Below, piece by piece: positions 14,740 through 29,766 of a DNA stretch of 32,902 nucleotides. Every line of letters starts with the position of its first letter. Position 1 is the stretch's first letter. The notes beneath the pieces are model-generated. The model saw only the letters and a list, made by a program, of their open reading frames with translations, searched no databases and was not told where the DNA came from. The stretch is from Eledone cirrhosa (Eukaryota), in contig CAXHJY010000635.1 of the NCBI GenBank assembly GCA_964016885.1, forward strand, positions 1 to 32,902. The letters run 5' to 3'. The position numbers and the translations under genes are program-made.

Positions 14740-15808
14740 ACTGGTAATTTATTGTATGTCAGCTCAACAATATGGAGCAGTTATTAGTATTAAGGATACT
14801 ATTTATTGTTATGTATATAATAAAACCTTTTATGGTTATATATTTTTTATATACAAACCCCAAATAGTGAAAGATAGTCATTCATTACTATCTTATTACC
14901 AGTAAGATAAATAGCTAAATGTAATAACATAAGTTGTTTTACAGAGCAGTTATATAGAGATTACAATAATCAAAGTTCAGTTTAAATCATTTATTTGCTT
15001 ACAATTGTTTCCTCCAAACCGAGGTTTGGATTCTTCGGAGCAACTATTTAGTGATCTATAACATACTTGACCTCCTTTTCAACACAAGAGACATATAAAA
15101 ACATATGCATATATTGACCCACAGTGGGATGACATCCATCATAATGATATAGCATGGCAATTTACATACACAGGTTAAAGGATAAAAATAAAAATAAAAA
15201 TAAAAATAAAGCATTGGCAGTTTACGAAGATAAAGCAAGAGGAAAGTTTAGAGTAGTCAGTGTATGAAACAATCTCACGTGTAGCATGCACGCGTGTCTT
15301 ATTTATACAGGATTAGAGTGCGGCAGATTGTTACTTGTAGGATCAGGCAGTTAAAGCAGGCAATCAATAGTATTATATGGGCTGTATTGTTAAATCATTT
15401 TCTCGCATACACCTGTATGATATACAATCCCGAATGTAGAGAAATATCAAAAATATCGAACATATTATAAAACATATTATAACATAGGCAAAACAGCACC
15501 ACTGTCTTCGCACACACCACCACTCACATAATCCATGAAACGCAATATATAGACTACAGGACTATCACACAATCCACGATGATTCAGCATAGAACCAAGT
15601 TATAAACCATATCTTGTCGATTCTTAATTAATAGATCATGTTGTTTAGTTTTGTGAGATGATATTATATTCCGGAAGTGTATGTGTGACCAAGGGGAGTT
15701 AATGCGTAAGGGGAGTTAATGCCTAAGGTGAGGTAACTAGCTGATTTCTATAGTTAAATTTATTATCCTAAAGTACATTAATGGTGTTTCAAATGAGTCC
15801 CTATCATA
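14546..15808 (-). repeat. PLE-B 5' pseudo-LTR region
   Basis: Direct repeat of 9942-11177. Confidence 0.93.
14995..15043 (-). ncRNA. Variant type I hammerhead (CCGAAGA core) in the PLE-B 5' pLTR
   Basis: As 10391-10439, with a perfect stem II TCCAAAC/GTTTGGA. Confidence 0.75.
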
Positions 15809-16485
15809 AGTTCCCAGGCAAAGCGTGGACACAGGGAACTTATACAAAAATAATTCAGTGGATGGAAAAAAGCAAGCGAGGACTAGATTCCAGGACATTG
15901 AAAAAATCACTGCCTACTTAGTCGGTGGCGAATTCAAAAGAATCGATCACGTGACATCGAGGTCAATCAGTGAGGAGTGAGTTTGCCTGGGAACTTAGCT
16001 GAGAACAGCTCTCCCTGATGACGAAAGTATATTTCTCCATGTTGTTCCAATCGGAAACCATGTTTATTCCCTTTCAGAAACTAATTAGTTGGAGTGAAAT
16101 TTTAGTAAGTAAATTTTTATAATTTTCTTATTTTATGTCTTTCATATAATTGTTCAGCATCCCCTTGCATTGAACCACAAAGTTACTAAGACAAAACCTA
16201 TATATTTGCTAGCATAGGTATACATTTGTATATATATGTTGGTAGATATACTAATTCTTTATAATTACCTCCAAATTATTTTGTTGAGCAAAAATTTGCC
16301 AAAACTACTGCTATGCTTCATAGTAATAGCCAGGCTACGGTCTTATTAGCATCCTCACTCCTCCCTGATTGACCTCGATGTCACGTGATTGATTCTTTTG
16401 AATTCGCCACCGACTAAGTAGGCAGTGATTTTTTCAATGTCCTGGAATCTAGTCCTCGCTTGCTTTTTTCCCATCCACTGAATTA
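15807..16485 (+). mobile_element. Non-coding HHR element (retrozyme-like, ~532-nt monomer) with an inverted 175-bp second copy
   Basis: 15851-15981 is the reverse complement of 16354-16485; 15807-15822 is the reverse complement of 15982-15997; HHR at 16011-16094; no credible ORF; right end in (TA)n. Confidence 0.75.
16011..16094 (+). ncRNA. Type I hammerhead with a ~55-nt stem II
   Basis: CTCC/GGAG stem I; CTGATGA 16015-16021; C-GAAAG...CTTTC-A enclosing CATG..TTCC-aatc-GGAA..CATG; GAAA 16077-16080; palindromic stem III AACTAATTAGTT; GUU site at 16090. Confidence 0.8.
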
Positions 16486-16499
16486 TATATATATATGTA

Positions 16500-16544
<45 letters not shown>

Positions 16545-16561
16545 GTATATATATATATGTG

Positions 16562-16595
<34 letters not shown>

Positions 16596-16600
16596 TATAC

Positions 16601-16638
<38 letters not shown>
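16486..16638. repeat. (TA)n microsatellite
   Basis: Direct reading. Confidence 0.98.
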
Positions 16639-16647
<9 letters not shown>

Positions 16648-16692
16648 TAAACAAATAATGAATAAACAATTCCTTATATTAAACAAAAAAAG

Positions 16693-16847
16693 TTCATTAT
16701 TTAACGATCGTTTCTAGGATATATATGTGTTAGAATTGGTATGCATATTCAACAGATCTATGTACAAAATTATACAAAATTATACAAATTATCAAGATTA
16801 AATATACATACCAAACACATATATACGCCGTCTTCAGAAATAATGAA
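16693..16847 (-). ncRNA. Long-stem-II hammerhead, inverted PLE-C pLTR
   Basis: Reverse complement of 22947-23101. Confidence 0.85.
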
Positions 16848-17785
16848 GTATATTTATTGATAATAACAACAATTCAAAATTTCAGTTCAAAATTGACCAA
16901 TGAAAACACAAAGGGTTAAATGCAGTTTGGTGTGTGTATATACATGTAAAACCCTTACACATATTTTACAAAAATGTATGTATAATTTGTATACGCATAC
17001 TAAAAGGATGGATGCAAATACAAAATTTCAAGGTTAATGTCTCTGTAAGCTTACTTTGCGCAGATAAGATGCGCATTGATACTTATGAAATCAAGTATAT
17101 AAATATATTTTTTCATACTCACACATATCAGTACAATCACACATACACGCGCGTATATGCATAAATATACACATAACCACGAACATACAAACACACACAC
17201 ACCCCCACTCACATTTATATATGTGGATATAAAATCATAAGCACATGGATATTAATTCACTCACATAAAACACTGGTACACACATTTCTAGATCAAGATA
17301 CAGAAATTAGGTGGGAGGGGGGGGAAGGGTCAGTATTCAATTGTCTGAGCAGACTGCCTAATATAAATGTATCTATAAATTAAGAAAAATAAAAAAATAA
17401 AACAATAAAATATAATAAATATAATATAATATACATACACATACAGATATATACACATACATACATGTACACACACATAGAAATATTTACGCATACACAC
17501 ATACACACATACATATACAGTCATACACACACATACACCTACACGAACATACACATACACATATATAAAGATATATATATACACACACACGCACGCAACA
17601 CATACACACATACACATATATATAAAAAAAATAAATAATAAAGATATATACCCATATATATATATACACATACACATATATATATATATATATATATACA
17701 TATACATACACATACATCTAAATATACATACGCATACACACACACATACATGTACATACATGTACATATACGCACATCGACATAC

Positions 17786-17816
<31 letters not shown>

Positions 17817-18091
17817 TAGACATATAGATACATACACACACAACTTACATACACACATATATATATACACATGTATATTCATACATAGAATTAGATATAT
17901 AATCATACATACATATGTACTTACTTATACTCATATATACAAATACATACGCATCCATATATGCGTATATACATAAAAAACCGCTACAACCTCACATAAA
18001 CTCAGACATACAAATAAAAATAATAATAAAAAGGCATATGTATATACATACACACACGCATTAATAGAGATATACATATACACATACATAC

Positions 18092-18127
<36 letters not shown>

Positions 18128-18414
18128 ATATATATATATATGTATATACACACACATACACTCATACATACATATAAATATATATATACACATAGATATC
18201 CACACACTTATACCACCATAAATACACATACAAACACCCACATATACATATATATACACACGTATACATATATATATATATATACACACACACATAAAAA
18301 ACAGACATGCACATATATATATATTTTTTTTACACTTATATTTATACATATTATATACACATACACAACCTCACTTATACACACATACACATAAGTTATA
18401 TTATAATAATGAAG

Positions 18415-18453
<39 letters not shown>

Positions 18454-18555
18454 TACATATATATACATACATACATACACATACATACATACATATAAAC
18501 ATATACATACATAAATACACACGTACGAATATAGACATATATTCACACATAGACA

Positions 18556-18612
<57 letters not shown>

Positions 18613-19739
18613 ATATACACAGACACATATACACATTCACATATATATATATATGTGTGTGTGTGTACACACACATATATACACACACACACACAAATAC
18701 ACATAAACACATACATATGCATACATGCACACACACACACATATATCACATAGATACGAAGATAAACATATAAATAGAGAGACATACATATATATACAAC
18801 ACACATACACACACATACATACACGCGCATATACATATACATATATATATACACATATATATATTCCTATATATACATACATACACATATATACACATAT
18901 ATACACATACATACACATATACGTACACACATTCACATACACATACATATATAATGCATATATACACATATATACATACATATACACACTCATATATACA
19001 CACGCAATCTTACATTCATATTTGCATGCGCATATATGTATTTTTATATTTAGATATAAATACCCAAACCTATATAGACACCTACCTACATATATATTCA
19101 TACATAGACGCTTACAAATACAGATGATAATAGTATGGGGGAAAGGGGGGGTTTGGAGAAGGGGATCAAAGTAAATATATGTTTCAAGAAACATAAAATA
19201 TTTTCCGTATCTTTATCCAATGTATGTTCTTATATATTTTCAGTGTTAGGAAACATAACCAACAAGAACTAAGGCAAAATCTATGCATCTCAAAATAAAT
19301 AAGTATACCATTAATCATATGTTAACTAAACCAAAAATAGTCAACATATTGACTTCTAAGGTGTAAATTAGTTAGGTTTATAATATTTGAAGCAGAATTT
19401 TGAAGTTAAACAGTAGTAGATTATTAATTACAGTATAATTAAATTAAAGTTAATAACGTTATGGTATCAATATTAGGAAATGAATTTAGTAATAGGGAAA
19501 AAAAACACACAAATAAAAATAAAATAAAGTATTACATCGGTAGTAGAATATAAATTATATGTTAACTAAATTAAAAATTATATATTTATTTCAATAGTAT
19601 ATGTTAGTTAGGTATACAATACATAAAGCAGATATTGTATTTCATCAATAGCATAATATAATTATATGCAAATAGAAATCAAAATTAATACGCATACATA
19701 TACATAAACATACACATATATATATATATACATATATAT

Positions 19740-19788
<49 letters not shown>

Positions 19789-20324
19789 TATACACACATA
19801 TATACATACATACACATATACATACACACACACACATACACATACACATATACATATACATATCTTTTTCAAAAAATTGCATAGAATATATTAACTAGGT
19901 ATATATCCAAAACACATCCCATTCTATGATTACATGACATTCTGCAATTCGTCTGTATAAGGATACTAATTTTAAGCAAATTAAAATTAAAATTTTAGGT
20001 TGATTAAAACTAAAACCAAATAATAAATATATTTCTAAAATGTATATTAATTAGGTCTATAATACTAAAAATTATTTCTCTGTCATTGGATACACGATAT
20101 TATTTTGTTATATTTTATCTGTAAAAGAATTATAATAAAAGGTTTAAATAAGTTAAAATTAATCTATAAATTAAATTACTAAGTATATATTAGTAATATT
20201 TAAAGGTTTTTCACAATTTATGATTACATAATATTTTATATTCTCATCTGTAATAAAATATTAATTAAATTAAATTTATAGGTTAACTAACAATTAAATT
20301 AAATTAATTTCTAAAATAATGTTA

Positions 20325-22400
20325 TTAATTAGGTTTATAATATTTAAATGTTTTTTTTAATTTATGATTACACGATATAATTAATTCCTGTCGTTTATTT
20401 AATAAGATATCCTTAGACTTCATTATTTCAAATAGTTCTTGGGAACATAATCTACATTCATTTCTATTATTTTGATAAGGGGTGGCTCTTTTGAGCACAC
20501 TCCAGGTCAAATCATATTTTATATTCTTATTTTTATAACTATTGATTTTTTCTGCTAGAGATGTTGTATTAGCCAGTGCGGCATTTTTAAAACTATGCTT
20601 GTGGGTATTAAACCTTGTCTTAAAATTGTTAGAGGTAGCTCCTATATATGAGCAAATAGAATCTTTAGTTTTAACATTACATTTATAGACTATGTTGTTA
20701 ACAAGACAATTCCCTTTTAATGGGCAGTTTGCTTTGTTTCTACAGTTACATCCTTTCGTTAATTCTGTATTTGAGGAGATATTATGGTTAATTTGATGTA
20801 CTGGTGGTATACTTATGGTTTTCTTACATTTATATGCATTATATGCACTTATATTTTGTTTTATGTTATTTGTTGTAGAGTATGAGAATTTAACTGTAGA
20901 CCTATTTAAGATTTGATGGTATTTGTGGTTTGGCGGGAAGTTTTTCTCAAGGATATAAAAAAATTTTTTAGCAATACTATCCTTAACTTGTAAATTAAAA
21001 GGAGCATTATACCAAGTAACCCGTCTATTACGGTTTCTATGTTGTTTATTATTTTTATTATTTTTATAGGTTGTATCGTGATTTTTACTAGGAGGATTAA
21101 TGTTAATGATCTCACCACAACTATTTTTAGTTATATTTGTAGATTTAGGTGTTTTATCCTTTTTATTAGGAGTTTTATTATTAATATTTATTATAGTTGT
21201 ATGATGAGTAGTTTTTTGAGAGTTACTATACTTTATATTAGAAGATTTAGTATTTTGGGGTATAGTGTGGGTGGCATTTAGGTGTGTAGTTTTCATTTGG
21301 TGTTTGTTGGTAATATTATGTTGTATGCTTTCAGTATTTTTAGTAGAAGGTATATACTCTAATCTATTTTTGTGGCCACTTCTATCTAGAGCTTCGTTAT
21401 AGAAGGTCGCATTTTTATCAAATACATCTTGGTTAGAAGAAAGGTTAGAAATTCTAAGTGATATATTATATGCAAGGTTTTTAAGGATAGATTTAGGGTG
21501 ATTAGATTGTGAGTGTATGTAATGTAAGTTTTGGTTAGGTTTATGGTAAGGTTGGTAGATACCCGTAGCTAGATCTAAAGTTATATCTAGGAAATTTACT
21601 ACTTTACTTGTTTTTTCAAAAGTAATATTAAGATTATAATAGTCTTTAAGGAAAGTTCTAATATGTTTTTTGTTTTTTTCGATTTCTGAAAGGCTAAGGT
21701 TGTTAGAAAGAAGAAGACAGTCATCACGATATAAACCACCTTTGAGGTGGGGAAAAGAGGCATTTATGTTGAAAAGGAGAAAGAGGCCCACAAGATCAGT
21801 AATTTGGGCGGAATCGCTTGAACCCATAGTAATATCAAAAAGATTACTGTATGTGTTTCTGGTCCAGTATTCATTCTGAAATTCAATAAGTGTTAGTCTA
21901 GCATGTGTAATAATGTTAATGTCATCCAAAGTTAAGTTAGATCTATTTTTAGCAAATATCAATGCTTTGTTCAGGAGTATAGGTGATATAGAAGAATAGT
22001 AATTATCTATATCAAATTGTAGGAAAGAAGCAGAAGATTTACACCTAATATTTTTAAACCAGTTAATTACCTGGGAGGTGTTTTCCCAGAGTGGTAAAAT
22101 AACGTGTTTTCTTATTTGTGGGATGACTCTATCTAAAATTTTTTTGCTAATTATTCCAATATCTGATTTGGAGGGACATATAAGTCTAATAGAAGGATTT
22201 GAGTTAAAGTTAGATTTGTGATCTTTCAGGTTGAAGTGTGGTCTTTTCAATGCCAAAGGTTCAGTTCTATCTTCAATGTTTAGTTTTTTTACTATGTTGT
22301 GTGTTTTGTTGTTGATGTTGGTGAGTGACACATTATTAGATTTTTTATAATTTTTTCTGAGTTCTTTATATATGAACTCATTATAATGTTCAATATCCAT
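20325..22400 (-). CDS. PLE-C RT + GIY-YIG, N-terminally truncated copy (691 aa)
   Basis: The translation is identical to the last 691 aa of the 23424-25886 ORF. Confidence 0.85.
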   Translation of the reverse strand: MDIEHYNEFIYKELRKNYKKSNNVSLTNINNKTHNIVKKLNIEDRTEPLALKRPHFNLKDHKSNFNSNPSIRLICPSKSDIGIISKKILDRVIPQIRKHVILPLWENTSQVINWFKNIRCKSSASFLQFDIDNYYSSISPILLNKALIFAKNRSNLTLDDINIITHARLTLIEFQNEYWTRNTYSNLFDITMGSSDSAQITDLVGLFLLFNINASFPHLKGGLYRDDCLLLSNNLSLSEIEKNKKHIRTFLKDYYNLNITFEKTSKVVNFLDITLDLATGIYQPYHKPNQNLHYIHSQSNHPKSILKNLAYNISLRISNLSSNQDVFDKNATFYNEALDRSGHKNRLEYIPSTKNTESIQHNITNKHQMKTTHLNATHTIPQNTKSSNIKYSNSQKTTHHTTIININNKTPNKKDKTPKSTNITKNSCGEIININPPSKNHDTTYKNNKNNKQHRNRNRRVTWYNAPFNLQVKDSIAKKFFYILEKNFPPNHKYHQILNRSTVKFSYSTTNNIKQNISAYNAYKCKKTISIPPVHQINHNISSNTELTKGCNCRNKANCPLKGNCLVNNIVYKCNVKTKDSICSYIGATSNNFKTRFNTHKHSFKNAALANTTSLAEKINSYKNKNIKYDLTWSVLKRATPYQNNRNECRLCSQELFEIMKSKDILLNKRQELIISCNHKLKKTFKYYKPN

Positions 22401-22946
22401 ATTTTTCTTAATTTATAGATACATTTATATTAGGCAGTCTGCTCAGACAATTGAATACTGACCCTTCCCCCCCCCCCTCCCACCTAATTTCTGTATCTTG
22501 ATCTAGAAATGTGTGTACCAGTGTTTTATGTGAGTGAATTAATATCCATGTGCTTATGATTTTATATCCACATATATAAATGTGAGTGGGGGTGTGTGTG
22601 TGTTTGTATGTTCGTGGTTATGTGTATATTTATGCATATACGCGCGTGTATGTGTGATTGTACTGATATGTGTGAGTATGAAAAAATATATTTATATACT
22701 TGATTTCATAAGTATCAATGCGCATCTTATCTGCGCAAAGTAAGCTTACAGAGACATTAACCTTGAAATTTTGTATTTGCATCCATCCTTTTAGTATGCG
22801 TATACAAATTATACATACATTTTTGTAAAATATGTGTAAGGGTTTTACATGTATATACACACACCAAACTGCATTTAACCCTTTGTGTTTTCATTGGTCA
22901 ATTTTGAACTGAAATTTTGAATTGTTGTTATTATCAATAAATATAC

Positions 22947-23101
22947 TTCATTATTTCTGAAGACGGCGTATATATGTGTTTGGTATGTATATTTAATCTT
23001 GATAATTTGTATAATTTTGTATAATTTTGTACATAGATCTGTTGAATATGCATACCAATTCTAACACATATATATCCTAGAAACGATCGTTAAATAATGA
23101 A
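22947..23101 (+). ncRNA. Type I hammerhead with a ~116-nt stem II, PLE-C 5' pLTR
   Basis: Perfect 10-bp stem I TTCATTATTT/AAATAATGAA; CTGAAGA 22957-22963; long stem II (TATATATGTGTT/AACACATATATA, TGGTATGTATATTTA/TGAATATGCATACCA, ATCT/AGAT); GAAA 23080-23083; palindromic stem III AACGATCGTT; GUU site at 23091. Confidence 0.87.
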
Positions 23102-23445
23102 CTTTTTTTGTTTAATATAAGGAATTGTTTATTCATTATTTGTTTAATATTTTATCTTGACTCTGTATACCGTTTATCTTTCACCGAAAGTGGTTTTTCA
23201 TTACATCTCTTCTTTCCATGATATCCGGAATACATTGAGTTCTTCATACGGATTGGACACTACCGTAAACTCTTGGTAGATTTATCTACATAATTTTGCT
23301 CCTATTTTCACGGAAATATTCGTATTTTTGTACTGTATGTGTGTATTAATTTTATATTTATGTATAAACATATATATATGTATGATTTTGTAAACCCATA
23401 TACATTTAGTTGAGCTCTTTCAATTGTCCATCATCCATATCACAA

Positions 23446-25886
23446 TGGAAAAACAATATTTAGGAACCTCCTTAAAAAACACACCAATACCTTCTAAGGA
23501 CGACTTCTTACTCCTTATGATTCAGAAAACTAATAATTTTATCAGAAGGGTTAGATGGAGAGCCTACCACTTCGATAGAAAATCTAAACAAGCAGATCGG
23601 AAATATATGTATGATTTCAATACTTACAAGAATCCACCACACAATTTTTTACTTGAAGACTTCGAGAAAGACCTTTTTAATTTAATTAAACACCTCAAAT
23701 TTAAAAAGTATAAATCCGTCTTTCAAAAGGACCTTGATTCTACCCTATTGGACCTAAAAAAGTCTAAAAAAATCCATGTCCACTCGGACAAAACTGGTAA
23801 CTTGTATCATATGGATATTGAACATTATAATGAGTTCATATATAAAGAACTCAGAAAAAATTATAAAAAATCTAATAATGTGTCACTCACCAACATCAAC
23901 AACAAAACACACAACATAGTAAAAAAACTAAACATTGAAGATAGAACTGAACCTTTGGCATTGAAAAGACCACACTTCAACCTGAAAGATCACAAATCTA
24001 ACTTTAACTCAAATCCTTCTATTAGACTTATATGTCCCTCCAAATCAGATATTGGAATAATTAGCAAAAAAATTTTAGATAGAGTCATCCCACAAATAAG
24101 AAAACACGTTATTTTACCACTCTGGGAAAACACCTCCCAGGTAATTAACTGGTTTAAAAATATTAGGTGTAAATCTTCTGCTTCTTTCCTACAATTTGAT
24201 ATAGATAATTACTATTCTTCTATATCACCTATACTCCTGAACAAAGCATTGATATTTGCTAAAAATAGATCTAACTTAACTTTGGATGACATTAACATTA
24301 TTACACATGCTAGACTAACACTTATTGAATTTCAGAATGAATACTGGACCAGAAACACATACAGTAATCTTTTTGATATTACTATGGGTTCAAGCGATTC
24401 CGCCCAAATTACTGATCTTGTGGGCCTCTTTCTCCTTTTCAACATAAATGCCTCTTTTCCCCACCTCAAAGGTGGTTTATATCGTGATGACTGTCTTCTT
24501 CTTTCTAACAACCTTAGCCTTTCAGAAATCGAAAAAAACAAAAAACATATTAGAACTTTCCTTAAAGACTATTATAATCTTAATATTACTTTTGAAAAAA
24601 CAAGTAAAGTAGTAAATTTCCTAGATATAACTTTAGATCTAGCTACGGGTATCTACCAACCTTACCATAAACCTAACCAAAACTTACATTACATACACTC
24701 ACAATCTAATCACCCTAAATCTATCCTTAAAAACCTTGCATATAATATATCACTTAGAATTTCTAACCTTTCTTCTAACCAAGATGTATTTGATAAAAAT
24801 GCGACCTTCTATAACGAAGCTCTAGATAGAAGTGGCCACAAAAATAGATTAGAGTATATACCTTCTACTAAAAATACTGAAAGCATACAACATAATATTA
24901 CCAACAAACACCAAATGAAAACTACACACCTAAATGCCACCCACACTATACCCCAAAATACTAAATCTTCTAATATAAAGTATAGTAACTCTCAAAAAAC
25001 TACTCATCATACAACTATAATAAATATTAATAATAAAACTCCTAATAAAAAGGATAAAACACCTAAATCTACAAATATAACTAAAAATAGTTGTGGTGAG
25101 ATCATTAACATTAATCCTCCTAGTAAAAATCACGATACAACCTATAAAAATAATAAAAATAATAAACAACATAGAAACCGTAATAGACGGGTTACTTGGT
25201 ATAATGCTCCTTTTAATTTACAAGTTAAGGATAGTATTGCTAAAAAATTTTTTTATATCCTTGAGAAAAACTTCCCGCCAAACCACAAATACCATCAAAT
25301 CTTAAATAGGTCTACAGTTAAATTCTCATACTCTACAACAAATAACATAAAACAAAATATAAGTGCATATAATGCATATAAATGTAAGAAAACCATAAGT
25401 ATACCACCAGTACATCAAATTAACCATAATATCTCCTCAAATACAGAATTAACGAAAGGATGTAACTGTAGAAACAAAGCAAACTGCCCATTAAAAGGGA
25501 ATTGTCTTGTTAACAACATAGTCTATAAATGTAATGTTAAAACTAAAGATTCTATTTGCTCATATATAGGAGCTACCTCTAACAATTTTAAGACAAGGTT
25601 TAATACCCACAAGCATAGTTTTAAAAATGCCGCACTGGCTAATACAACATCTCTAGCAGAAAAAATCAATAGTTATAAAAATAAGAATATAAAATATGAT
25701 TTGACCTGGAGTGTGCTCAAAAGAGCCACCCCTTATCAAAATAATAGAAATGAATGTAGATTATGTTCCCAAGAACTATTTGAAATAATGAAGTCTAAGG
25801 ATATCTTATTAAATAAACGACAGGAATTAATTATATCGTGTAATCATAAATTAAAAAAAACATTTAAATATTATAAACCTAATTAA
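23446..25886 (+). CDS. PLE reverse transcriptase + C-terminal GIY-YIG endonuclease (probably Hydra-group)
   Basis: First ATG near 23446 (MEKQYLGTSLKNTPIP; the ORF track opens at 23424 on TTG). SDKT, QFDIDNYY, TMGSSDSAQ, GGLYRDD, NFLDITL, YQPYHKP, CNCRNKANC, IVYKC..YIGAT..FKTRFNTHKHSF, CRLCSQE, LLNKRQE. No stops. Confidence 0.93.
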
Positions 25887-26349
25887 TAACATTATTTTAG
25901 AAATTAATTTAATTTAATTGTTAGTTAACCTATAAATTTAATTTAATTAATATTTTATTACAGATGAGAATATAAAATATTATGTAATCATAAATTGTGA
26001 AAAACCTTTAAATATTACTAATATATACTTAGTAATTTAATTTATAGATTAATTTTAACTTATTTAAACCTTTTATTATAATTCTTTTACAGATAAAATA
26101 TAACAAAATAATATCGTGTATCCAATGACAGAGAAATAATTTTTAGTATTATAGACCTAATTAATATACATTTTAGAAATATATTTATTATTTGGTTTTA
26201 GTTTTAATCAACCTAAAATTTTAATTTTAATTTGCTTAAAATTAGTATCCTTATACAGACGAATTGCAGAATGTCATGTAATCATAGAATGGGATGTGTT
26301 TTGGATATATACCTAGTTAATATATTCTATGCAATTTTTTGAAAAAGAT

Positions 26350-26422
26350 ATGTATATGTATATGTGTATGTGTATGTGTGTGTGTGTATGTATATGTGTA
26401 TGTATGTATATATGTGTGTATA

Positions 26423-26471
<49 letters not shown>

Positions 26472-27598
26472 ATATATATGTATATATATATATATGTGTA
26501 TGTTTATGTATATGTATGCGTATTAATTTTGATTTCTATTTGCATATAATTATATTATGCTATTGATGAAATACAATATCTGCTTTATGTATTGTATACC
26601 TAACTAACATATACTATTGAAATAAATATATAATTTTTAATTTAGTTAACATATAATTTATATTCTACTACCGATGTAATACTTTATTTTATTTTTATTT
26701 GTGTGTTTTTTTTCCCTATTACTAAATTCATTTCCTAATATTGATACCATAACGTTATTAACTTTAATTTAATTATACTGTAATTAATAATCTACTACTG
26801 TTTAACTTCAAAATTCTGCTTCAAATATTATAAACCTAACTAATTTACACCTTAGAAGTCAATATGTTGACTATTTTTGGTTTAGTTAACATATGATTAA
26901 TGGTATACTTATTTATTTTGAGATGCATAGATTTTGCCTTAGTTCTTGTTGGTTATGTTTCCTAACACTGAAAATATATAAGAACATACATTGGATAAAG
27001 ATACGGAAAATATTTTATGTTTCTTGAAACATATATTTACTTTGATCCCCTTCTCCAAACCCCCCCTTTCCCCCATACTATTATCATCTGTATTTGTAAG
27101 CGTCTATGTATGAATATATATGTAGGTAGGTGTCTATATAGGTTTGGGTATTTATATCTAAATATAAAAATACATATATGCGCATGCAAATATGAATGTA
27201 AGATTGCGTGTGTATATATGAGTGTGTATATGTATGTATATATGTGTATATATGCATTATATATGTATGTGTATGTGAATGTGTGTACGTATATGTGTAT
27301 GTATGTGTATATATGTGTATATATGTGTATGTATGTATATATAGGAATATATATATGTGTATATATATATGTATATGTATATGCGCGTGTATGTATGTGT
27401 GTGTATGTGTGTTGTATATATATGTATGTCTCTCTATTTATATGTTTATCTTCGTATCTATGTGATATATGTGTGTGTGTGTGCATGTATGCATATGTAT
27501 GTGTTTATGTGTATTTGTGTGTGTGTGTGTATATATGTGTGTGTACACACACACACATATATATATATATGTGAATGTGTATATGTGTCTGTGTATAT

Positions 27599-27655
<57 letters not shown>

Positions 27656-27757
27656 TGTCTATGTGTGAATATATGTCTATATTCGTACGTGTGTATTTAT
27701 GTATGTATATGTTTATATGTATGTATGTATGTGTATGTATGTATGTATATATATATA

Positions 27758-27796
<39 letters not shown>

Positions 27797-27915
27797 CTTC
27801 ATTATTATAATATAACTTATGTGTATGTGTGTATAAGTGAGGTTGTGTATGTGTATATAATATGTATAAATATAAGTGTAAAAAAATATATATATATGTG
27901 CATGTCTGTTTTTTA

Positions 27916-27947
<32 letters not shown>

Positions 27948-28081
27948 CGTGTGTATATATATGTATATGTGGGTGTTTGTATGTGTATTTATGGTGGTAT
28001 AAGTGTGTGGATATCTATGTGTATATATATATTTATATGTATGTATGAGTGTATGTGTGTGTATATACATATATATATATA

Positions 28082-28120
<39 letters not shown>

Positions 28121-28393
28121 ATGTATGTGTATATGTATATCTCTATTAATGCGTGTGTGTATGTATATACATATGCCTTTTTATTATTATTTTTATTTGT
28201 ATGTCTGAGTTTATGTGAGGTTGTAGCGGTTTTTTATGTATATACGCATATATGGATGCGTATGTATTTGTATATATGAGTATAAGTAAGTACATATGTA
28301 TGTATGATTATATATCTAATTCTATGTATGAATATACATGTGTATATATATATGTGTGTATGTAAGTTGTGTGTGTATGTATCTATATGTCTA

Positions 28394-28424
<31 letters not shown>

Positions 28425-28505
28425 GTATGTCGATGTGCGTATATGTACATGTATGTACATGTATGTGTGTGTGTATGCGTATGTATATTTAGATGTATGT
28501 GTATG

Positions 28506-28539
<34 letters not shown>

Positions 28540-28800
28540 TATGTGTATATATATATATGGGTATATATCTTTATTATTTATTTTTTTTATATATATGTGT
28601 ATGTGTGTATGTGTTGCGTGCGTGTGTGTGTATATATATATCTTTATATATGTGTATGTGTATGTTCGTGTAGGTGTATGTGTGTGTATGACTGTATATG
28701 TATGTGTGTATGTGTGTATGCGTAAATATTTCTATGTGTGTGTACATGTATGTATGTGTATATATCTGTATGTGTATGTATATTATATTATATTTATTAT
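26350..28800. repeat. Low-complexity TA/TG/TATG tracts inside the PLE-C 3' UTR (mirrored at ~17410-19860)
   Basis: The irregular pattern is reproduced almost base for base in both arms. Confidence 0.9.
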
Positions 28801-29365
28801 ATTTTATTGTTTTATTTTTTTATTTTTCTTAATTTATAGATACATTTATATTAGGCAGTCTGCTCAGACAATTGAATACTGACCCTTCCCCCCCCCTCCC
28901 ACCTAATTTCTGTATCTTGATCTAGAAATGTGTGTACCAGTGTTTTATGTGAGTGAATTAATATCCATGTGCTTATGATTTTATATCCACATATATAAAT
29001 GTGAGTGGGGGTGTGTGTGTGTTTGTATGTTCGTGGTTATGTGTATATTTATGCATATACGCGCGTGTATGTGTGATTGTACTGATATGTGTGAGTATGA
29101 AAAAATATATTTATATACTTGATTTCATAAGTATCAATGCGCATCTTATCTGCGCAAAGTAAGCTTACAGAGACATTAACCTTGAAATTTTGTATTTGCA
29201 TCCATCCTTTTAGTATGCGTATACAAATTATACATACATTTTTGTAAAATATGTGTAAGGGTTTTACATGTATATACACACACCAAACTGCATTTAACCC
29301 TTTGTGTTTTCATTGGTCAATTTTGAACTGAAATTTTGAATTGTTGTTATTATCAATAAATATAC

Positions 29366-29520
29366 TTCATTATTTCTGAAGACGGCGTATATATGTGTTT
29401 GGTATGTATATTTAATCTTGATAATTTGTATAATTTTGTATAATTTTGTACATAGATCTGTTGAATATGCATACCAATTCTAACACATATATATCCTAGA
29501 AACGATCGTTAAATAATGAA
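29366..29520 (+). ncRNA. Long-stem-II hammerhead, PLE-C 3' pLTR
   Basis: Identical to 22947-23101. Confidence 0.87.
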
Positions 29521-29705
29521 CTTTTTTTGTTTAATATAAGGAATTGTTTATTCATTATTTGTTTAATATTTTATCTTGACTCTGTATACCGTTTATCTTT
29601 CACCGAAAGTGGTTTTTCATTACATCTCTTCTTTCCATGATATCCGGAATACATTGAGTTCTTCATACGGATTGGACACTACCGTAAACTCTTGGTAGAT
29701 TTATC

Positions 29706-29766
<61 letters not shown>

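Follow-up and report, generated by a model that had tools for sequence, protein, structure and literature searches.

A non-coding hammerhead-motif retrozyme of Eledone cirrhosa, likely inserted into (TA)n by a Hydra-clade Penelope-like enzyme

Circular RNAs have been shown for the retrozymes of coral, mussel and axolotl, with Penelope-like elements (PLEs) proposed as their helpers (PMC7229834). Frog retrozymes have been linked to pLTRs, and eight of nine frog retrozyme dimers stayed uncut in vitro (10.64898/2026.07.22.740005). Hammerheads of the PLE type are reported to cut weakly and as dimers (PMC4209133). Among PLEs, the Hydra clade targets (TA)n, and its autonomous members carry a single ORF with RT, a C-terminal GIY-YIG and the motifs RWK, DKT and CxCX5C (PMC8557442). 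In the available text of these sources, mobilisation of animal retrozymes by PLEs via circles is proposed, not shown (PMC7229834; 10.64898/2026.07.22.740005), and how PLEs come to insert in tandem and in inverted form is a question left open (PMC8557442).

Here we describe a locus of E. cirrhosa in a stretch of 32,902 nt (the window), which is an entire contig (CAXHJY010000635.1) of a 3.0 Gb genome. We conclude that the element at its centre is very probably a clipped copy of a ~535-nt non-coding hammerhead-motif retrozyme, likely pasted into (TA)n by a Hydra-clade PLE and probably copied off a circular RNA. The family is a new one among known animal non-LTR retrozymes. From the DNA patterns described below we infer that the retrozyme RNA would be expressed, cleaved and probably closed into a circle.

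The window copy and its family

The window copy consists of two opposed arms (Table 1). A sequence-only reading had described a plus copy running from 15982 to 16485 into (TA)n, and a minus copy that repeats its last ~131 nt, continues for 28 nt and then gives its first 16 nt. Our alignments bear this out, with the end of the plus arm placed at 16486. The minus arm, read from 15981 to 15850, matches 16354-16486 with two substitutions and one 1-nt gap over 133 columns (an overlap of 132 nt). Past a bridge of 27 nt (15849 to 15823; 28 nt if the plus arm is taken to end at 16485) it reproduces the opening 16 nt of the plus arm without a mismatch, for which the chance expectation in the region is about 3e-7. 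The ~532-nt monomer (504+28) with one hammerhead deduced earlier is correct for the window copy, which holds a single hammerhead and no second ribozyme; natural tandem units measure 535 nt, from which the window copy differs by a 4-nt deletion and one extra C.

Table 1. Positions of the retrozyme, its structural features and the flanking elements in the window
Feature	Position	Strand	Remarks
PLE-B, Hydra-clade	9884..15808	-	partial tandem; frame 12268-14661; 3' end in (TA)n 9839-9883
PLE-B hammerhead-like motif	14995..15043	-	CCGAAGA core; predicted cut after 15000
TA common to retrozyme minus arm and PLE-B 5'-truncated end	15807..15808		
Retrozyme minus arm	15807..15981	-	final 159 nt of the unit followed by its initial 16 nt; no spacer to plus arm
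Hairpin across unit join	15807..15842	-	arms 15842-15834 and 15815-15807
Bridge	15823..15849	-	missing from plus arm, present in natural tandem copies
Retrozyme plus arm	15982..16486	+	unit positions 1-505; ends in (TA)n at non-standard site
Type I hammerhead, PLE type	16011..16094	+	cut predicted after 16090
Short-end (S) site	16144..16148	+	read through in window copy
Conserved hairpin just 5' of long-end site	16202..16251	+	20 pairs, 98.5% of cells paired, 3 two-sided
Long-end (L) site	16259..16263	+	read through in window copy
(TA)n tract separating plus arm from PLE-C	16484..16641		
PLE-C, Hydra-clade, two-armed	16641..29709		open 830-aa frame 23394-25886

A search of the genome for the family gave at least 211 matches with 40 of 2,867 candidates scored, and a 20-nt ribozyme core had 9,418 exact genome matches, against 0 for its reversed control. 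The first 100 listed core places fall into 62 clusters, from which we extrapolate to ~5,800 sites genome-wide. Among these 100 places, same-strand neighbouring ribozymes lie 522-571 nt apart in all 19 cases within 2 kb, and of 19 cases of opposed neighbours 18 stand back-to-back. The tandem copies without ORF that the earlier reading predicted at a ~532-bp period were thus found, with a period of 535 nt; in one locus (L009) two adjoining units are identical over 535/535 nt. The end-to-start join occurs in 44 of 45 young insertions (86 joins). Subfamilies diverge down to about 70% identity. The unit has a GC content of 34%, a longest ATG frame of 37 aa and a longest stop-free frame of 65 aa (in two units), and no LTR layout was seen among the copies compared. 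L074-L077, which lie on C1 inside a span of 1 Mb, are four near-identical copies of a single insertion and represent a segmental duplication; they were counted once in the join and young-locus pair counts, and all four were kept in the rare-variant count.

The 132-nt inverted ends of the window copy, taken by themselves, and the similar look of three short copies (L147, L162, L165) would suit a MITE that moved as DNA and whose terminal inverted repeats measure 130 bp. The inverted overlaps vary from copy to copy, however, so that no fixed 130-bp repeat is borne by other copies; arms extend to 1.2-1.5 kb in some of them, units stand head to tail, and the RNA structure covaries. The variable overlaps and tandem units rule this reading out for practical purposes.

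Hammerhead motif and RNA structure of the unit

The hammerhead was identified with our own descriptor and by covariation; Rfam gave no ribozyme match for the retrozyme in 14600-16480. Its parts follow in the order 4-bp stem I, CUGAUGA, an extra C, 6-bp stem II with a long loop, an extra A, GAAA, stem III and GUU. Stem III is palindromic (16080-16089), one stem II pair is mismatched in the window copy (16028), and two stem II pairs show compensatory changes in 13 copies. The site of the predicted cut is clean, by eye, across 63 aligned ribozyme copies. Cleavage is nevertheless uncertain because of the GUU triplet, the 4-bp stem I and the 55-nt stem II region.

In 20 natural units, 42 pairs selected from the consensus fold are paired in 98.2% of cells, compared with 29-43% in slid controls. 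Two-sided changes occur at 8 of these 42 pairs. Both figures are to be read with the facts that one alignment served to derive the structure as well as to score it, and that copies related to each other do not count as independent. For one unit, the circular fold lies 3.7 SD below 30 shuffles; the ribozyme region shows no unusual stability by itself, and an unconstrained fold of it does not give the ribozyme.

The hairpin TAAGTTCCC/GGGAACTTA, which the earlier reading placed at the closure of end to start, is conserved and lies within the unit: its seven pairs are paired in 97.9% of cells over 20 units, with a two-sided change at one pair. It is not the ligation point but lies ~100 nt upstream of the cut, and the "join" is merely where the plus arm happens to begin. 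A perfect 13-bp join hairpin in one query was rejected as evidence of covariation, being an inversion junction.

Further features of the unit were observed. In the consensus fold a CACUCC segment (unit ~377; window 16354-16372) pairs with the 3' strand of the ribozyme (16087-16098), and the modelled pairing could possibly block the ribozyme within the circle. Several 5' ends, that of the window minus arm included, fall at unit 377-398. A CACGTG box with flanking TGATTG words (window 16366-16391) is near-invariant across subfamilies, and a TATA-like word lies ~25 nt ahead of the unit start (window 15844); the two may form an internal promoter.

Insertion ends, helper and proposed mechanism

In the young subfamily, two TATA sites mark where the arms give way to (TA)n: a short-end site (S) 62 nt and a long-end site (L) 177 nt past the cut. 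Analysis of ends took in 59 of the 62 listed clusters, with three left out, and yielded 42 back-to-back pairs. All 32 pairs in which both ends are canonical combine one S with one L (p=5e-10 against independent choice of ends), and the other 10 of the 42 have a non-canonical or artefactual end, such as internal hairpin matches in L148 and L149. Among 45 young loci selected by similarity, 17 of 18 pairs have mixed S/L ends, and the single S/S pair is that of L006. A fuzzy end detector produced many false long ends; its end counts were dropped, and its orientation and spacing counts were kept. Mixed ends are also found in PLE-B, where 10 of 11 pairs (49 loci) combine ends at 44-49 and 213-218 nt and the eleventh has an end at 204, and the arms of PLE-C stop 61 nt and 199 nt beyond the cut of its own ribozyme.

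Measured against these sites, the window copy is atypical and clipped: both of its outer ends, at unit positions 505 and 16-17, lie off the sites of the family. The exact pattern of the position-505 end running into (TA)n occurs twice in the genome, and the left-type end (position 16-17) into (TA)n had 0 exact genome matches with one pattern spelling, so no third regular end was seen. Such outer ends make the window copy a poor witness by itself, and because they differ from the priming sites of the family its shape is probably partly secondary. The earlier proposal of a retrozyme inserted by PLE-style inverted priming is thus supported by the ends of the family as a whole and not by those of the copy for which it was made.

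Rare variants are common to opposite arms of an insertion in 48/348 cases, compared with 445/71,919 between insertions. This sharing fits one template per insertion, a fit to be weighed with its inflation by subfamily structure and with gene conversion, which could contribute. Only 11 of 107 5' ends lie within 20 nt of the cut (five hairpin artefacts set aside); as the ends are spread and not piled at the cut, copying appears to run through the cut site. An A>G excess, the scar of an edited RNA template, was not seen (76/12,561 vs 106/17,130 for T>C).

The family displays the insertion behaviour of the Hydra type, with a (TA)n target, tandem and inverted structure and a one-sided tail. Together with the neighbouring elements this points, at the level of the clade, to a Hydra-clade PLE enzyme as helper. 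Compared as DNA, the unit resembles PLE-B, PLE-C and PLE-D in low-complexity sequence only, and the comparison singled out no helper family; its ribozyme core is nearest in layout to that of the PLE-C family.

That resemblance, a ribozyme of the PLE type (PMC4209133) and the descent of frog retrozymes from pLTRs (10.64898/2026.07.22.740005) would agree with the sequence being the terminal repeat of a low-copy coding PLE. We consider this very improbable: arms that pass the long end wrap round to the unit start, the PLE-B and PLE-C loci examined contain no retrozyme match, and none of the sampled copies runs on into an ORF of its own parent, contrary to what such a repeat had been expected to do. 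An ancestral pLTR origin may still apply, since ~100 of roughly 5,800 sites were sampled.

For the retrozyme reading, we propose the following course. Tandem copies would be transcribed, their ribozymes would cut, probably as dimers via the palindromic stem III, and the cut unit would be ligated into a circle. Where a (TA)n tract is broken, the DNA 3' ends would each pair with one of the two UAUA sites of the RNA. Two reverse transcriptases would then copy inward, past the cut site and often beyond one unit, until the two cDNA ends meet and join in the middle of the insertion.

The same family and helper might also do without a circle, if the template were a linear uncut multimer, or a cut monomer with precise template jumps. 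Either would leave the same DNA pattern, a weak ribozyme would leave multimers uncut, and coding PLEs are tandem as well (PLE-B in part, PLE-C with units 6.7 kb apart). The clean cut site fits template jumps less well, however, linear read-through from an internal start would presumably not by itself lengthen arrays, and circles are on record for other animal retrozymes (PMC7229834). We therefore regard a linear template as unlikely and a circle as the more probable.

Neighbouring elements and the junction with PLE-B

The retrozyme lies between two elements that both carry Hydra-clade motifs, and Pfam gave no family for the frames of either. PLE-B has RWR, DKT and CxCx5C as defined in PMC8557442. 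It is a partial tandem in which 9942-11177 repeats 14546-15808, with a second hammerhead-like copy (predicted cut after 10396). The core of this motif reads CCGAAGA, not CUGANGA, and the C at that position is present in 42/42 motif matches of the PLE-B family. The arms of PLE-C are 99.9% identical to each other, and at least 150 copies match it at 98-100% identity across a searched segment of 152 aa, most of them in an open 830-aa frame; some units are in tandem ~6.7 kb apart. PLE-C is a very young, separate insertion that looks recently active, and its family is younger than most retrozyme copies. In its hammerhead (window 16693-16847 (-), 22957, 29376) the stem II region spans 116 nt and the triplet is GUU.

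Other repeats of the window were noted. Positions 1-1909 hold an unrelated tandem array of 467-nt units (4.1 of them, 100% identical) with a hammerhead in each unit and weak Rfam HH9 matches; it ends in (TA)n and is cut off by the contig start. A small inverted pair at 3676-5178, with hammerhead-like cores at 3923 (-) and 4941 (+), lies between (TA)n tracts, and two LINE reverse-transcriptase fragments leave (TA)n tracts at 2084-3064 (-) and 7830-9444 (+).

The fusion of the minus arm to the 5' end of PLE-B at a shared TA, as first noticed from the sequence, is confirmed, and the overlap consists of the TA only. We lean towards a later PLE-B insertion with deletion as its origin. Elsewhere, co-linear partners of the retrozyme are diverse and include non-PLE repeats, which argues for a generic process of insertion plus deletion: judging by translation, we take the partner in L119 and L121 to be another PLE type, that in L120 an RTE-like LINE and that in L124 a SINE-like repeat. 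The right end of the window copy is likewise clipped, and no second copy of the junction was found in 40 scored of 1,717 candidates.

Alternatively, the junction could be a chimera made in a single event, in which the enzyme, having begun with PLE-B RNA, changed over to the RNA of the retrozyme at the TA they share. We treat this as a real if tentative possibility: no (TA)n separates PLE-B from the retrozyme, private divergence is similar on the two (9/664 vs 21/2,287, p=0.38), and a jump at 9945 lies inside the PLE-B arm. Furthermore, L108 contains two direct head-to-head joints of retrozyme with another Hydra family, and in L119-L124 the missing part of the arm was not found past the partner within the 10 kb examined. 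The L108 joints (1490-4646 and 7470-9613) are 5 kb apart and involve one further Hydra family, with pieces 98% identical; the second arm continues into a small hammerhead element.

More doubtful, though worth stating, is the combined proposal that a Hydra-clade reverse transcriptase, passing between its own RNA and a retrozyme circle during a single integration, produced both the window and L108 junctions, and that the S/L rule reflects an asymmetric two-enzyme complex reading fixed marks of structure on whatever RNA circle it binds. If true, it would name the clade of the helper and give a model for the inverted and tandem insertions of PLEs.

Comparison with known retrozymes and Hydra-clade PLEs

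The family gives genomic support for the proposed Penelope-type mobilisation of retrozymes; what the window copy contributes is one more family together with some chimeric joints, not a new principle. With a short RNA whose priming sites are mapped and whose hairpins covary, and with a Hydra element that seems active in the same genome, the system would lend itself to compact tests. We found no paper on a two-fixed-end rule or on retrozyme-PLE chimeras, subscription papers being outside the scope, and the pattern was not found in literature on two-sided priming or template switching by PLEs with hammerheads, on octopus retrozymes or on in vitro PLE integration.

The hammerhead resembles the minimal hammerheads of PLEs, as far as these are described in the available text of PMC4209133, in its short helix I, long helix II, palindromic helix III and extra nucleotide ahead of G10.1-C11.1. 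It differs in an added A that separates helix II from GAAA, a structured loop II of 43 nt and the GUU triplet; the term GUU does not appear in that text.

Like other metazoan non-LTR retrozymes, so far as the sources available in part describe them, the family is built of tandem units that lack an ORF and bear a single type I hammerhead, its GC is low, its copies number thousands, and PLEs occur in the same genome. Its unit of 520-570 nt exceeds the 170-400 nt of the retrozyme circles shown (PMC7229834) and falls within the 51-972 range of a vertebrate survey (10.64898/2026.07.22.740005). In contrast to those retrozymes, this family has a PLE-type ribozyme with GUU and opposed arms whose two ends in (TA)n are fixed and unequal, a feature the accessible descriptions do not include.

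With Hydra-clade PLEs the family shares (TA)n targeting, partial tandems, an inverted 5'-truncated arm, a tail at one end only and a hammerhead upstream of the ends (PMC8557442). It departs from them in having no ORF and no DNA similarity to the three Hydra families compared, and its tail measures 115 nt, compared with 30-40 bp for Naiads (PMC8557442).
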